DNA of 10,488 nucleotides. It comes from a virus. Taxonomy: Duplodnaviria; Heunggongvirae; Uroviricota; Caudoviricetes. Below, piece after piece: positions 1 to 9,602 of the stretch. Numbering within the stretch: position 1 is the first letter of the stretch; each line of letters begins with the position of its first letter. The stretch is from IMG/VR virus record IMGVR_UViG_2534681663_000022. The stretch is one strand, 5' to 3'. The notes under the pieces were generated by a model. It saw only the letters and a list, made by a program, of their open reading frames with translations. It was not told the DNA's origin and made no database searches. A program made the translations under genes and the position numbers.

Positions 1-1975
<1,975 letters not shown>

Positions 1976-6791: not shown

Positions 6792-6892
6792 AGCCTCACC
6801 TCCGCACGGAACGGATGGCATAGTTATTATGTGTAGGCTTTCAGACACATCAATCAGAGCCTTAATTGATATATATGCTGGAGACGATGCAA

Positions 6893-6917
6893 TATAAAAA
6901 GCTCGCCGTAGCGAGCT
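6893..6917 (-). terminator. Intrinsic terminator downstream of the lipoprotein genes
   Basis: Minus-strand hairpin AGCTCGC-TACG-GCGAGCT followed by TTTTTAT. Confidence 0.6.
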
Positions 6918-7042
6918 AATAAAATGTATTTCTCTGATATTATGTTTATTTGTATTAGCTCAGACTTGACATCACAGGTTTCGTATATAGAACATCATCA
7001 AATCTGTCAGTTTGCTATGAATGAGATATAGTAATTGAAGAG

Positions 7043-7438
7043 CTAACCTCGCATGTCAAAGCCAGATTTCTGAAAATCTCTGTAGACTTCCGGATTGTTG
7101 AAGGCCGGAAATTTGGCTTTATGAGCTGCGGACTTTATCGCTTCGCAATAGGCTTTATCACCGTTACTGGTAGATATTTTTAACGCCGTGCCATCCTGAG
7201 AGAATTCCATATGCAACCTGCATTTTTTCCCTTTCCAGTTATGCGGCTCATCAAGTTTGGCATTAATTGCAGCTCTGATTCCCCGCGCTTGCGCCCCCCA
7301 TTCATCCTGATCATCCCAGCGTCCTGAACTGCAACTACCTGTAGCAGTAGTTTTGTGGCAATCTGAAGGGTGTAAAGGTGTGCATCCCGCAACAAAACCG
7401 ACCCAAAAAGTCAACATAACGATTTTCTTTAATCCCAC
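7043..7438 (-). CDS. Lipoprotein with a divergent TolA domain III-like C-terminal domain (paralog of the gene at 7589-8017)
   Basis: GTG at 7436-7438 is preceded by AGGAG at 6-nt spacing. Signal peptide MGLKKIVMLTFWVGFVAGC has lipobox VAGC, Thr at +2. The C-terminal segment IRAAINAKL...GKKCRLHMEFSQDGTALKI...YCEAIKSAAHKAKFPAFNNPEVYRDFQKSGFD aligns with the other lipoprotein and with the TolA C-terminus. Confidence 0.65.
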   Translation of the reverse strand: MGLKKIVMLTFWVGFVAGCTPLHPSDCHKTTATGSCSSGRWDDQDEWGAQARGIRAAINAKLDEPHNWKGKKCRLHMEFSQDGTALKISTSNGDKAYCEAIKSAAHKAKFPAFNNPEVYRDFQKSGFDMRG

Positions 7439-7588: not shown

Positions 7589-8017
7589 TCAGGGTTTAAA
7601 ATCCAGCACCCCATTTTGAAATACTTTATATACTTCCGGCGAAGGGGGGGCAGGTATATCAGCATTCTTTATCGCATTCATCGCTTCACGACATAAATCG
7701 AGGTCTCCACTTTCTCTTTTAACCTCCAGTAGAAGGCCATTCGGGGCCATATGCATTCTCAGTGTACACTCTTTTCCTGAATACTTACTCGCATCCCCGA
7801 ACTGTTTTTCGATGGCGCTCTTGATTTGATGGGCATACAGACGGATATCCTCACTAACATCAGAAGTACGTTCAGATGAACTCACATACTGTGTCTCTAT
7901 TGCTTTATCGGAGTAATATGATGTACGGTCATGATAATTTGTCGATACAGCATCAGTGCACCCGATAATAATCCCACTAATAATCAACGTAAGAATTGAT
8001 GCGCTACGAAAACCCAT
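7589..8017 (-). CDS. Lipoprotein carrying a TolA domain III-like C-terminal domain
   Basis: ATG at 8015-8017 is preceded by GAGG. Signal peptide has lipobox IIGC, Thr at +2, then a Ser/Thr/Tyr-rich linker. The C-terminal 85 aa (IRLYAHQIKSAIEKQFGDASKYSGKECTLRMHMAPNGLLLEVKRESGDLDLCREAMNAIKNADIPAPPSPEVYKVFQNGVLDFKP) closely parallel the recalled E. coli TolA C-terminus (..YAGQIKSAIESKFYDASSYAGKTCTLRIKLAPDGMLLDIKPEGGDPALCQAALAAAKLAKIPKPPSQAVYEVFKNAPLDFKP). Confidence 0.75.
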   Translation of the reverse strand: MGFRSASILTLIISGIIIGCTDAVSTNYHDRTSYYSDKAIETQYVSSSERTSDVSEDIRLYAHQIKSAIEKQFGDASKYSGKECTLRMHMAPNGLLLEVKRESGDLDLCREAMNAIKNADIPAPPSPEVYKVFQNGVLDFKP

Positions 8018-8076: not shown

Positions 8077-8604
8077 ACAGCGAATCAGATCAAATAAAAC
8101 GCACATTTGTTAACATTTACACAAAGTCTGCGTGGGATATTCTGAAAGAATATCCATAATGTGGAGAGAATCTATTGAAGTGCATGGTGCCGGGTGCCTC
8201 CCGGTGAACAAAATGTTCGTGATACCTGTCGGCGACAGAAAAGGTTAATGGTATCACCCCACCGCACAGGGGGATTCACCATGCAGGAGTTTTCTTAGCA
8301 AACTCACTGCGCGCCCGGCAACTCCCAACCACATAAAATGCGGAGTTTGTGGTATTTATGCATATAACTCGCAGGAATTATCTTAAAAAACTGATGTCGA
8401 TCCGGATTAAAAAGAAGCAGGTCATCATCAGATGACTGGAAAAAAGGAAAAAAAAATACTCATCATACAGTTTTGATTGCAGGGATGAGCCTGCTATGCA
8501 CAATATGCAGAATATAAGCAAGATAAAAATATGCAGGCATATTATTTCGGATTTTGTTATTAACACAACCTTTTTAATAATCATTTGGCATACAATAAAC
8601 CAGT

Positions 8605-8632
8605 CCAAAAAGAACCGCCTAAACAGGCGGTT
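8605..8632 (-). terminator. Intrinsic terminator within the Q-to-lipoprotein intergenic region
   Basis: Minus-strand hairpin AACCGCCT-GTTT-AGGCGGTT followed by CTTTTTGG. Confidence 0.6.
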
Positions 8633-8876
8633 GGTCAATACAAAGGATGCTTCGTCTTTATTATAGTAATCTGAGGCGTCGGGTGTCTTGTATCAGACAA
8701 CATATTGTCCCGCTAAACAGCGAATTACAAACCACCCTGCAATGATCTCTCATCTCATTTTATATGAGTTGACGACATCAGGATAACGCATCATCAGCCC
8801 CTGCCAAGAAATATCAAAACTCCCGCCAGCAATGTGTTATCACAATATTGTAAAAAAAACACAGCACCGAAACTAT

Positions 8877-8915
8877 AACTGGTCTCTGTTATAATTTGGA
8901 GCAGAAAGACCAGTT
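8877..8915. repeat. Perfect 9-bp inverted repeat (AACTGGTCT / AGACCAGTT) with a 21-bp spacer containing an extended -10 element TGTTATAAT
   Basis: Arms at 8877-8885 and 8907-8915; TGnTATAAT at 8887-8895 on the plus strand. Confidence 0.55.
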
Positions 8916-8952
8916 GCCCAACTAGCAGCATTCTCCCCTGCTTTCCTGACGT

Positions 8953-8979
8953 AAAAAAACCGCATTAAGCGGTTTTTTT
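8953..8979. terminator. Bidirectional intrinsic terminator about 80 nt downstream of the Q-like gene (candidate tR'-type late terminator)
   Basis: AAAAAAACCGC-ATTAA-GCGGTTTTTTT: an 11-bp perfect stem with A-run and T-run flanks, so it is functional in either orientation. Confidence 0.7.
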
Positions 8980-9059
8980 ACGATGTCCATGTCTGCAATC
9001 CGCCTCGCGATACAGCTGTGCGAAGCATAGCAAAATTGAAGCAGTTTATACGTAAGAAA

Positions 9060-9602
9060 TCAAGCCATTTTCTCAGCAAATGATTCACGCATGGGAATAT
9101 ATAGGGCATACTCAGCAACAGCTAACCAATTAGCAATCCGTTTTTCGCATGTGCTAAAACACCACTCTGGGTGTCCATCATTTAGCAATTCAGCCATTTT
9201 GCGCTTAGTCATCCCCCGCCCTTCATAGCGTTGCCGGAGAATGCAAATCAATCCTGGATGCTCTGCCAGCACCTCACTTATGACTCGATCAATACATAAC
9301 GCCTCTGCATCAGTACAATGCGCCAGCCAGCTCTTTTGCTTGCCGTTGATCATCTCTCGCAAAAACGCTTCCAGCTCAGCTTTCTCTATTCCCGCTTTTT
9401 TCATTCTACGCAGGGCTTCATTAATGGCTGTTTTCGTCAGTTTTTTGGATGCCAACAACTGATTGAACATATTCCCTGACCTGCCACCGCCAATATACGA
9501 CCAGCGCCCCCACATACGTAGTTTTCCCTGAATCCAGACACTTTCCAGCGTGGTGAGGCGAAGGTGTTCTCCGCTTTTTCCTGTATTCGTTGGGTAAATC
9601 AT
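9060..9602 (-). CDS. Putative late-gene antiterminator Q (Q82-like family)
   Basis: Last gene before the terminator and lysis cassette; start overlaps the upstream stop as ATGA; contains a WGRW motif reminiscent of the ERWGAW motif of 82-type Q proteins. The family call is from recall and position only. Confidence 0.6.
   Translation of the reverse strand: MIYPTNTGKSGEHLRLTTLESVWIQGKLRMWGRWSYIGGGRSGNMFNQLLASKKLTKTAINEALRRMKKAGIEKAELEAFLREMINGKQKSWLAHCTDAEALCIDRVISEVLAEHPGLICILRQRYEGRGMTKRKMAELLNDGHPEWCFSTCEKRIANWLAVAEYALYIPMRESFAEKMA

Follow-up and report, generated by a model that had tools for sequence, protein, structure and literature searches.

Analysis of positions 8605-9059 indicated that this interval, which lies in a Rac-like lambdoid prophage of E. 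coli, is probably a late-gene switch of the phage 21 style followed by a decayed copy of a prophage sRNA gene of a known type. The window, i.e., the whole stretch of DNA that was analysed, is 10,488 nt long. Three modules lying side by side on the late (minus) strand probably explain the interval, rather than one regulatory unit. A sequence-only reading had proposed one structured unit; all of the features that it listed were present, but their unity did not hold, as the second terminator (T2) was part of a separate, horizontally shuffled module similar to STnc100 and PasD.

Module 1 (9063-8950, minus strand) would be a Q antitermination cassette of the phage-21 type. Module 2 (about 8950-8850, minus strand) would be a poorly conserved leader ending in an AU-rich hairpin and a U8 tract, the position of which is conserved. 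Module 3 (about 8867-8605, minus strand) would be a diverged and probably decaying copy of a structured late-strand RNA, in which a long 5' hairpin is followed by an STnc100/PasD-like four-way junction, an AU-rich single strand and T2. The first terminator (T1), T2 and the promoter and pause pattern were above chance, while the inverted repeat and TGNTATAAT were at chance level. Complete genomes carrying the prophage (at least 80% coverage at 99% identity or more) numbered 444, strain LD22-1 being one example. Comparison of 36 near-identical copies revealed 11 variable sites, none of them within 8860-8920, and variation within the lineage was too scant to inform. The features were as follows.

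9060-9602, minus strand: Q-like antiterminator gene (DUF1133, distant relative of Q21), from Pfam and a profile match to Q21 structures
9058-9063, minus strand: putative PR' -35 element TTGATT, overlapping the Q stop codon (9060-9062)
9035-9040, minus strand: putative PR' -10 element TTCAAT, 17 nt after the -35 element
9024-9029, minus strand: candidate sigma-dependent pause element TATGCT, 5 nt past the -10 element
8998-9023, minus strand: conserved initially transcribed block (TCGCACAGCTGTATCGCGAGGCGGAT), with identity across unrelated downstream contexts
8950-8982, no strand: T1, intrinsic terminator of the tR' type with 14-nt perfect arms, symmetric (A7...T7) in this lineage
8900-8949, minus strand: post-terminator leader, about 72-76% identical to prophages of the O111/O157 type
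8852-8902, minus strand: terminator-like late-strand hairpin with U8, arms AAAUUAUAAC (8898-8889) and GUUAUAGUUU (8879-8870)
8877-8915, no strand: perfect 9-bp inverted repeat, AACTGGTCT (8877-8885) and AGACCAGTT (8907-8915), with 21 nt between the arms
8887-8895, plus strand: extended -10 motif TGTTATAAT, the sole TGNTATAAT in the window
8794-8931, minus strand: 45-aa ORF with a frame that is not conserved, judged not to be a gene
8769-8854, minus strand: long conserved hairpin that extends the sRNA module on its 5' side (alignment A3, helices 3 and 4)
8601-8762, minus strand: module A, a diverged sRNA copy of the STnc100/PasD superfamily (covariance model R1, 37 bits, E 4e-8)
8605-8632, minus strand: T2, the terminator of the sRNA module, with an 8-bp stem and a T-run (helix 11 of A3)
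8128-8314, minus strand: STnc100 sRNA gene (Rfam), lying beyond the interval as a second module in tandem (86.6 bits against a gathering score of 47)

The Q-like protein matched Pfam DUF1133 at 7e-107 and, marginally, PF06530 (26.4 bits, cut-off 26). A profile built from 26 homologs matched the Q21 chains 6P18_P and 6JNX_P in the PDB (E 2.3e-5), and the match was colinear over residues 15-39 and 95-178. DUF1133 and PF06530 were both present in every homolog among those listed, and some sources gave homologs the names 'antiterminator' or 'late gene regulator'. With a pLDDT of 55, the AlphaFold2 model of the protein was too poor for confirming the fold, and a Foldseek search of this model against the PDB returned solely meaningless matches (E > 0.8). 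The weak but consistent match to PF06530 suggests homology to proteins of the Q21/Q933W type. The Pfam and profile matches upheld the earlier view of the gene as a Q-type antiterminator, distantly related to Q21. The late genes downstream encode a holin of the P21 holin S family, a lysozyme and Rz.

No minus-strand promoter had been seen by eye between 8980 and 9059; this was wrong. The pattern TTGATT-17-TTCAAT-5-TATGCT was found at 9063-9024 on the minus strand, with one occurrence in the window against 0.03 expected. Among 103 related loci, 98 carried TTNAAT-N5-TANGCT at the Q stop, and in all 98 of these TTGNNN stood exactly 17 nt 5' of TTNAAT, whether inside or outside coding sequence. The motif-bearing loci came from Escherichia, Shigella, Citrobacter, Klebsiella, Enterobacter, Buttiauxella and others. 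Relative to the Q stop codon, the motif started 1 nt before or 15, 20 or 22 nt after, and the spacer was always 17 nt. TAnGCT was invariant across genera and matched the annotated SDPE of phage 21, TAAGCT. The block at 8998-9023 was 88-97% identical (85% in one locus type) among loci of E. coli, Shigella and Citrobacter whose downstream sequence was otherwise unrelated.

At position 2, the putative -10 element TTCAAT (in relatives TTGAAT or TTAAAT) does not have the usual A. The sequence AA(C/G)TG(C/A) was conserved immediately 5' of the -10 element in all groups, and ACTGAGCA was found downstream of the SDPE in a distant group. No direct-repeat QBE similar to that of Q21 (ATTGAGCA/AATGAGCA) was recognisable in the 17-nt spacer TCTTACGTATAAACTGC; the DUF1133 branch is therefore predicted to use a Q-binding element unlike the Q21 one, and this prediction can be tested directly.

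From these patterns, sigma-70 RNA polymerase would start at the promoter overlapping the Q stop codon (TTGATT-17-TTCAAT), with a predicted start at about 9028-9030, and would pause at the -10-like TATGCT at the very start of the transcript, the expected pause position being about +16 to +25. The DUF1133 Q protein would be loaded at this pause, and T1 and every downstream terminator would then be read through, into the TolA-like morons and the S21-type lysis genes. PR' activity, pausing and Q dependence, like the expression and function of the RNAs discussed below, are predictions from sequence. The pattern TTGNNN-17-TTNAAT-5-TANGCT would define, at the sequence level, where the late promoter and the pause site lie in the large DUF1133 branch of Q proteins, and could be used for annotating PR' and tR' in thousands of enterobacterial prophages.

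Many loci have TG before TATGCT, so this hexamer might act as an extended -10 element instead. TATGCT (9024-9029) with TG at 9031-9032 would then be the extended -10 of PR' itself, the start would lie near 9017-9019, the terminated RNA would be about 64 nt, and the pause element would be the downstream TATCGC (TAAAGC in other genera). TGn is found directly 5' of the TAnGCT hexamer in most loci, but the CCGG, CAGC, CAGA and ACG variants have no TG before it. The key -10 positions A2 and T6 are kept by TAnGCT, while TTnAAT lacks A2; a second TA-containing hexamer stands 7-11 nt downstream of TAnGCT in all groups, although these candidate downstream pause hexamers lack T6. Against this assignment, the geometry TTGNNN-17-TTNAAT did not vary in any of the motif-bearing loci (98/98) despite unrelated sequence contexts, and experiments on phage 21 have defined TAAGCT, one base past the start site, as the pause element. 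Use of TATGCT as the -10 element was considered unlikely, and TTCAAT with TATGCT as the pause element was preferred.

The terminator of bidirectional type that had been placed about 80 nt past the Q-like stop was present. T1 has arms at 8950-8963 and 8969-8982 and a 5-nt loop, and begins 78 nt past the Q-like stop (9060-9062); the earlier coordinates, 8953-8979, cover its core (A7-CCGC-ATTAA-GCGG-T7). The 72-nt minus-strand fold of T1 had an energy of -27.1 kcal/mol (z = -4.6), and only four of the pairs are G-C. A simple terminator scan missed T1, probably because the T-run was counted into the stem. An intrinsic terminator at the equivalent position was found in all relatives, following within about 55-105 nt, with at least five different stem sequences. 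This agrees with the earlier proposal that T1 closes a short leader from the late promoter, the position being kept across genera while the stem sequence changes.

By its sequence and position, T1 is assigned as the tR' of a Q cassette of the phage-21 type. Without Q, termination at T1 would release an RNA of about 75 nt. The predicted PR'-to-tR' RNA extends from 9028-9030 to 8953-8959, as judged from the sequence and the homology to phage 21, and would be made constitutively in lysogens. Sub-threshold Rfam matches on T1 (Thr, Leu and Trp leaders, AgrB, isrK and OrzO-P; E 0.1-9) were rejected, as essentially the terminator hairpin alone was aligned.

In module 2, the interrupted stem of the late-strand hairpin reaches 8902/8864, and the U8 tract is located at 8859-8852. 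The fold of 8852-8902 had an energy of -12.9 kcal/mol (z = -2.2). A hairpin was found at the same place in every sequence type examined, with differing stem sequences, and 4 of the 13 consensus pairs of the 8870-8898 hairpin were compensatory. A G.U pair forms on the minus strand where the plus strand would give C.A. In relatives, the hairpin and U8 element comes after a tRNA array. A break of homology near 8900 had been considered as a recombination junction splitting the inverted repeat; this was weakened, as distant homology to the post-tRNA leader of relatives covers the whole leader, from one T-run to the next.

For module 3, covariance model R1 was built from 14 intact module A homologs, which share a structure with 7 compensatory pairs. 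R1 cross-matched the Rfam STnc100 loci (40 and 27 bits) and, weakly, PasD1 and PasD2. In the reverse test, the Rfam STnc100 model matched an intact module A copy at 22 bits (E 0.019). As this score for the intact homolog (L113 2746-2941) stands against a gathering score of 47, module A is a relative of STnc100 and not a member. On 8601-8830 of the window, the Rfam STnc100 model gave no match even at E up to 10.

The shared architecture is carried by the intact module A copies; the window copy keeps the outer helix, the AU-rich 3' single strand and the terminator, which were the only parts that aligned with R1. Its core, 94 positions in the model, was replaced by 71 unaligned nt, and half of the GGGAGGCACCC hairpin was deleted. 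The arms of T2 (8613-8620 and 8625-8632) form 8 bp and are followed by CTTTTT on the minus strand. T2 was conserved in all homologs, and T2 with its upstream sequence recurred at 66-79% identity in other prophages, after tRNA genes or arrays. The second terminator that had been described at 8605-8632 thus exists, but it belongs to the STnc100/PasD-like module and does not close a single unit.

In alignment A3, which covered the whole unit with 12 sequences, 96.2% of the cells were paired, compared with 38-53% in slid controls. A3 contained 14 compensatory pairs, against 6.8 +/- 1.6 in shuffles, and none of 500 shuffles reached the observed number. G.U was the commonest pair at 11 positions, which indicates that the structure is specific to the minus strand. 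The long 5' hairpin (helices 3 and 4) comprised 35 pairs with about 98% of the cells paired, 5 compensatory pairs and many G.U pairs; the minimum-energy fold of the window copy itself differs from this conserved hairpin at 8769-8854.

These results suggest that the unannotated STnc100/PasD relative is part of a late-strand structured RNA of about 300 nt with strong covariation. Because the core helices are lost and the copy's own fold is no better than shuffles (z = -0.9), module 3 of the window may be non-functional. About 300 of 5,426 complete E. coli genomes carried the relative with the long 5' hairpin, which broadens the view of sRNA modules that are shuffled in the region from Q to the lysis genes; one intact module A copy is that of strain FDAARGOS_1058 (NZ_CP065970 3634123-3634306). 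A promoter-like sequence, AAGACA-18-TATAAT (8689-8660, minus strand), was probably incidental, as it lies in the conserved AU-rich single strand of the module and relatives have ACAAT or ATAAT.

Other sRNAs were also compared. PasA, PasB and PasC of EPEC E2348/69 (loci from PMC8550237) had no similarity to 8315-9060, and the sole match of these loci was the STnc100/PasD-like stretch at 8181-8346. HnrS is an RNA of 66 nt (EcOnc10-12) with a reported 15-nt complementarity to the mazF end (PMC13502914), and this complementarity was absent from the window and from all loci.

The inverted repeat and the extended -10 motif in its spacer were at the positions described before, but both were at chance level; the repeat was not conserved, and the motif was absent from most relatives. 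For perfect 9-mer inverted repeats with a loop of at most 40 nt, 1.76 were expected per window (Markov-1) and about 8 distinct ones were present; the probability of at least one in a 455-nt interval was 0.055. The repeat was not conserved at the aligned columns in relatives. For TGNTATAAT, there was one match in the window against 0.48 expected, and at least one was found in 79 of 200 shuffles. TGTTATAAT is complementary to the late-strand hairpin's 5' arm. At its position, locus type L116 has CGTTATAAT, which keeps TATAAT, and types L094, L093, L113 and L114 have no plus-strand -10. The repeat and TGTTATAAT would be by-products of the AU-rich hairpin region, with no separate function.

The proposal of a plus-strand promoter and an antisense sRNA found no positive evidence, as the motif was at chance level, complemented a hairpin arm and was absent in most relatives. 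Transcription from TGTTATAAT would start at about 8900-8903 and end at T1 read in reverse, near 8979-8982; the product, about 80 nt long, would be antisense to the leader that lies directly past tR' and would damp late-gene read-through or act in trans; this was considered quite unlikely. TGnTATAAT is the full consensus of an extended -10, but the motif arose in the shuffles as above and has no -35 element (CCGAAA). AT-rich horizontally acquired DNA often carries active spurious promoters, and the A8 tract at 8852-8859 sits about 43-50 nt 5' of the predicted start, where a UP element would be; however, this tract is the U8 of the late-strand hairpin, whose 5' arm TGTTATAAT complements. T1 is perfectly symmetric (A7-stem-T7), and the predicted plus-strand RNA (8896-8985) had a fold energy of -32.5 kcal/mol (z = -6.4), a value dominated by T1, whereas symmetric A-tract/T-tract terminators were found in only 2 of at least 5 terminator types. 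The retention of TATAAT in L116 is set against its absence in the other four types named and against the O111/O157-type loci sharing 8900-8952, which have no plus-strand -10 nearby. A promoter-terminator pair was not conserved across related elements, as TATAAT was kept only in L116 and symmetry only in those two terminator types. The covariation, with its many G.U pairs, also argues for selection on the minus strand. That an active promoter at 8887-8895 and a two-way T1 would together produce the antisense RNA of about 80 nt just beyond tR' was judged improbable from these sequence comparisons. If true, this RNA could pair with Q-modified read-through transcripts or with the hairpin and U8 element, and an RNA-level brake would be added on late-gene and sRNA expression in a widespread Rac-like prophage.

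A role of the inverted repeat as a protein operator, bound for instance by a phage repressor or by the Q-like protein, is very improbable. The perfect 9-bp arms have centres 30 bp apart, about three helical turns, but the repeat was at chance level for the window, no relative conserved the two arms as a pair, dimer operators do not typically have a 21-bp spacer, and the region lies inside a late-strand RNA hairpin element. The suggestion of an operator or functional element was not supported. The 45-aa ORF is an open, hydrophobic frame with an ATG and GGGGAGA upstream, but it was not conserved as a gene and hardly could encode a small membrane protein, as the Shine-Dalgarno-like sequence directly abuts the ATG, the frame is broken or has no start in L116 and L073, no Pfam match was found and the ORF overlaps covarying RNA helices.

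The late-strand reading was compared with known systems. With cis-antisense RNAs of the lambda paQ/OOP type, only the antisense model would share the late-control location and the end at a symmetric A-tract/T-tract terminator; the phage 21 annotation (OL657228) itself includes an antisense promoter, paQ, inside Q. Unlike these systems, the interval has a chance-level motif alone, with no CII-type site and no conservation.

The prophage sRNAs STnc100 (RF02076) and PasD1/PasD2 (EcOnc13) have been described (Pearl Mizrahi et al. 2021, PMC8550237; Zhu, Shabalina and Storz 2026, bioRxiv 10.64898/2026.05.13.724894), and the evidence for PasD and STnc100 as sRNAs derives from other strains (PMC8550237). 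They share with module A a place on the late strand between Q and the lysis genes. With its intact copies they also share a helix that closes a multi-stem junction, together with a (U/C)CGGGAGGCACCCG(A/G) hairpin, a single strand rich in A and U, and an intrinsic terminator. Covariance models of the two cross-match, and a bona fide STnc100 copy is located 290 nt further downstream in the window. In contrast to STnc100, intact module A has the closing helix GAGGYG/CRCCUC, a different 3' single-stranded region and a conserved 5' hairpin extension of about 85 nt, and the core junction is lost in the window copy.

The predicted short RNA resembles lambda 6S RNA and the StxS precursor in that it would be constitutive from PR', ended at tR' in the lysogen and a by-product of antitermination. 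StxS derives from Stx-phage PR' transcripts, a 258-nt RNA being processed to 74 nt (Sy et al. 2020, PMC7547250).

The late cassette of phage 21 has been described as Q21, pR'21, QBE, SDPE and tR' (Yin, Kaelber and Ebright 2019, bioRxiv 10.1101/651190). In its annotation (OL657228), the Q stop is followed seven nt later by the -35 element and then by the QBE, the -10 element, the TSS and the SDPE TAAGCTG at +2; after the SDPE a terminator is reached in the space of about 46 nt, and the tRNAs and the S21 holin come next. The present interval differs in that its protein falls in Pfam DUF1133 with PF06530 only marginally detectable, the putative -10 element is TTnAAT compared with AACACT in phage 21, no direct repeat of two 8-bp subsites like the Q21 QBE is recognisable, and the predicted terminated RNA is about 75 nt compared with about 46 nt. 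Both have a Q gene, the product here being a distant Q21 homolog, with a promoter (putative here) within a few nt of its stop, a 17-nt spacer and, at the start of the transcript, the -10-like TA(A/T)GCT as pause element (a candidate here); in both, 50-100 nt or less separate this from an intrinsic terminator, and a holin of the S21 type comes later, with tRNAs before it in many relatives. By these comparisons, the supposed novel intergenic unit with an antisense sRNA resolves into recognisable parts.

Many E. coli chromosomes carry a Rac-like lambdoid prophage to which the window was 100% identical, and the 1-kb stretch around the interval between the Q-like gene and the cargo (8605–9059) was matched at a coverage of at least 80% in 444 of 5,426 complete genomes. 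All window genes were on the minus strand, which is the late strand, in the order DUF1367, YbcO/DUF1364, DUF1133 protein, a gene-free stretch of about 700 nt, STnc100, two TolA ORFs, P21-type holin, lysozyme, Rz, and trkG. The features were as follows:

9060–9602, minus strand: Q-like gene, DUF1133 protein of 180 aa
8950–8963 and 8969–8982: T1, the first terminator, 14-nt perfect arms
8877–8885 and 8907–8915: 9-bp inverted repeat
8898–8889 and 8879–8870, minus strand: leader hairpin AAAUUAUAAC/GUUAUAGUUU, then U8 at 8859–8852
8887–8895, plus strand: extended -10 motif TGTTATAAT
8613–8620 and 8625–8632, minus strand: T2, the second terminator, 8-bp arms and T-run
8128–8314, minus strand: STnc100 sRNA, full-length Rfam match (86.6 bits), 290 nt downstream of T2
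7043–7438 and 7589–8017, minus strand: two ORFs with a TolA C-terminal domain (Pfam PF06519)
1060–1182, minus strand: isrC, an Hfq-binding RNA of Salmonella islands, full-length Rfam match (150 bits)

T1, T2, the inverted repeat, TGTTATAAT, and a 45-aa ORF were all present where the sequence-only reading had placed them. We propose three late-strand parts for the interval: a phage-21-type PR'-pause-tR' cassette (late promoter, pause and terminator), a decayed leader whose hairpin is terminator-like, and an sRNA module of diverged STnc100/PasD-like type.

Situated after the sRNAs and before the holin, the TolA-domain ORFs are moron-like cargo of the late operon; in RefSeq, one is called a TolA C-terminal domain-containing protein and the other an incomplete tolA pseudogene of shorter span (about 7589–7849). 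In strain LD22-1, which was 100% identical to the window over the 1-kb stretch compared, the position corresponding to isrC is flanked by an annotated hypothetical protein and the ynaK pseudogene.

The Q-like DUF1133 protein showed a marginal Pfam match to PF06530, which Yin et al. (bioRxiv 10.1101/651190) name as the family of Q21 and Q933W, and a 26-homolog profile matched the solved Q21 chains 6P18_P and 6JNX_P (E 2.3e-5), colinear over both protein halves. In 103 usable loci with DUF1133 relatives, gathered from species-representative genomes and IMG/VR, a conserved block came after the Q stop codon, and beyond it an intrinsic terminator, constant in position and variable in stem sequence (at least five types). 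The minus-strand fold of T1 was -27.1 kcal/mol (z = -4.6). TAnGCT was invariant in the alignment of these loci (TATGCT at 9029–9024, minus strand, in the window), and TTGNNN, exactly 17 nt, TTNAAT, and 5 nt preceded it in 98 of the 103; the full pattern was expected by chance 0.03 times per window. The promoter motif started 1 nt before the Q stop, inside the coding sequence, or 15, 20, or 22 nt past it. Where no minus-strand promoter had been recognized by eye, a putative PR' overlaps the Q stop codon. Its -10 lacked the usual A at position 2, and no Q21-like repeat of the Q-binding element (QBE) was present at the window PR'.

TAnGCT would correspond to a sigma-dependent pause element, since phage 21 (OL657228) carries the pause element TAAGCTG, also of the form TAnGCT, one base after its start site. 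The reading of TATGCT itself as the extended -10 of the late promoter keeps some weight, because TG precedes the hexamer in many loci. With TAnGCT as the pause element, the likeness to phage 21 and the conserved promoter/pause pattern argue that T1 is tR', and the earlier proposal of a short Q-modified leader was correct. The predicted terminated RNA would extend from about 9028–9030 to about 8953–8959, roughly 75 nt.

Position 9018 (minus strand), within the conserved initially transcribed block, was C (TCGCACAGC) in the window and three other copies, and A (TCGCAAAGC) in 32 of the 36 near-identical copies, as it was in every other E. coli-type locus with one exception. Three chromosomal loci of E. 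coli, Shigella, and Salmonella (L010, L011, and L014) had DUF1133 genes 83–88% identical, without TTNAAT-N5-TANGCT at the stop codon; the L014 locus did have a copy of the PR' block, 86% identical to window 8984–9047, about 850 nt further downstream, suggesting that an insertion has separated Q from its promoter. Distant DUF1133 loci (L015, L019, and L021–L030) had a conserved ACTGAGCA beyond the pause element, some 20 nt past TAGGCT; its sequence is similar to the Q21 QBE subsites ATTGAGCA and AATGAGCA, but its position differs.

A 12-sequence alignment, extended upstream to cover window 8598–8962 on the minus strand, was folded with RNAalifold into 78 pairs, including a 35-pair hairpin (8769–8854) before the junction. 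In this structure 96.2% of cells could pair (38–53% in slid controls), and 14 pairs showed compensatory changes, compared with 6.8 ± 1.6 in shuffles, none of 500 reaching the observed value. G.U was the commonest state in 11 pairs, and such G.U-rich pairs work only in minus-strand RNA. Just upstream of the 35-pair hairpin, every sequence type examined had a hairpin at a fixed position with a differing stem sequence, and behind it GUGCUG and a U-run; in the window, this leader hairpin with its U8 folded at -12.9 kcal/mol (z = -2.2). In L094, L113, L116, and similar loci, 170–200 nt upstream of the sRNA module, a GGCACUG segment directly behind the last tRNA is able to pair with the CAGUGCU that immediately precedes the U-run; this 7–8 bp pairing is kept in four sequence types and encloses the whole leader. 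The GGCACUG partner is absent from the window, with T1 in its place.

The two elements carrying the novel interpretation of the sequence-only reading, a plus-strand promoter for an antisense small RNA and an operator, were at chance level. TGNTATAAT was expected 0.48 times and occurred at least once in 79 of 200 shuffles; TGTTATAAT is complementary to the leader hairpin's 5' arm, the A8 tract, which might be taken for an UP element, is the U8 of this hairpin read on the other strand, and at the aligned site only L116 among the relatives had a plus-strand -10. A plus-strand transcript might still be made, but a functional antisense RNA is quite improbable here, though late regions of related prophages do contain antisense-oriented sRNAs at other sites: by published coordinates, PasA and PasC of E2348/69 (L006 and L007) lie opposite in strand to the late genes, between a SASA esterase and the holin. 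Perfect 9-mer inverted repeats with loops of at most 40 nt were expected 1.76 times per window and about 8 distinct ones were present, several inside genes; the 455-nt interval had a probability of 0.055 of containing one or more. In this repeat the leader-hairpin loop pairs with a stretch lying some 20 nt upstream; at the aligned columns no relative kept this pairing. The antisense and operator readings were not supported, nor was the small protein, the 45-aa ORF being judged not to be a gene because its frame was interrupted or without a start in L116 and L073, it had no Pfam match, and it overlaps the covarying helices.

T2 and about 230 nt upstream recurred in other prophages at 66–79% identity, there after tRNA arrays. 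Intact copies of this module (module A) were aligned with STnc100 and PasD1/PasD2 (coordinates from PMC8550237), and shared their plan of closing helix, internal hairpins including (U/C)CGGGAGGCACCCG(A/G), AU-rich single strand, and terminator; the closing helix was GAGGYG/CRCCUC instead of GCAUGGUG/CACCAUGC. The consensus fold of 14 intact copies had 7 compensatory pairs, and their covariance model matched window 8601–8762 (minus strand, 37 bits), Rfam STnc100 loci (40 and 27 bits), and, weakly, PasD. With the Rfam STnc100 model, whose gathering score is 47, an intact copy reached only 22 bits. These reciprocal scores point to module A as an unannotated relative of STnc100/PasD; the family occurred in about 300 of the 5,426 complete genomes, where it carried no annotation. 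The window copy retained the outer helix, 3' single strand, and T2, but has other sequence in place of the core and has lost half of the GGGAGGCACCC hairpin; it is probably a relic. With STnc100 downstream of T2, the region from Q to the lysis genes in the window holds two STnc100-superfamily modules in tandem. TTGCCG-18-TAAGAA, upstream of the GCAUGGUG 5' end of STnc100, is a plausible promoter for it. The module A model also gave a weak match (6887–7020, minus strand; 19.6 bits, E 0.017) a short way upstream of the holin gene, which could represent either a third sRNA-like module, degraded further, or nothing more than a matching terminator.

Two by-products were the most useful: the promoter/pause signature that goes with DUF1133 Q proteins, and the STnc100-like family, which is unannotated. 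In the annotated phage 21 genome, the pR' -35 lies seven nt past the Q stop and is followed by the QBE, -10, and start site, with the terminator within about 46 nt, then tRNAs and the S21 holin; the QBE repeat is a feature of phage 21 that the window does not share. The predicted RNA of the window would be an analogue of lambda 6S RNA and the StxS precursor (PMC7547250).
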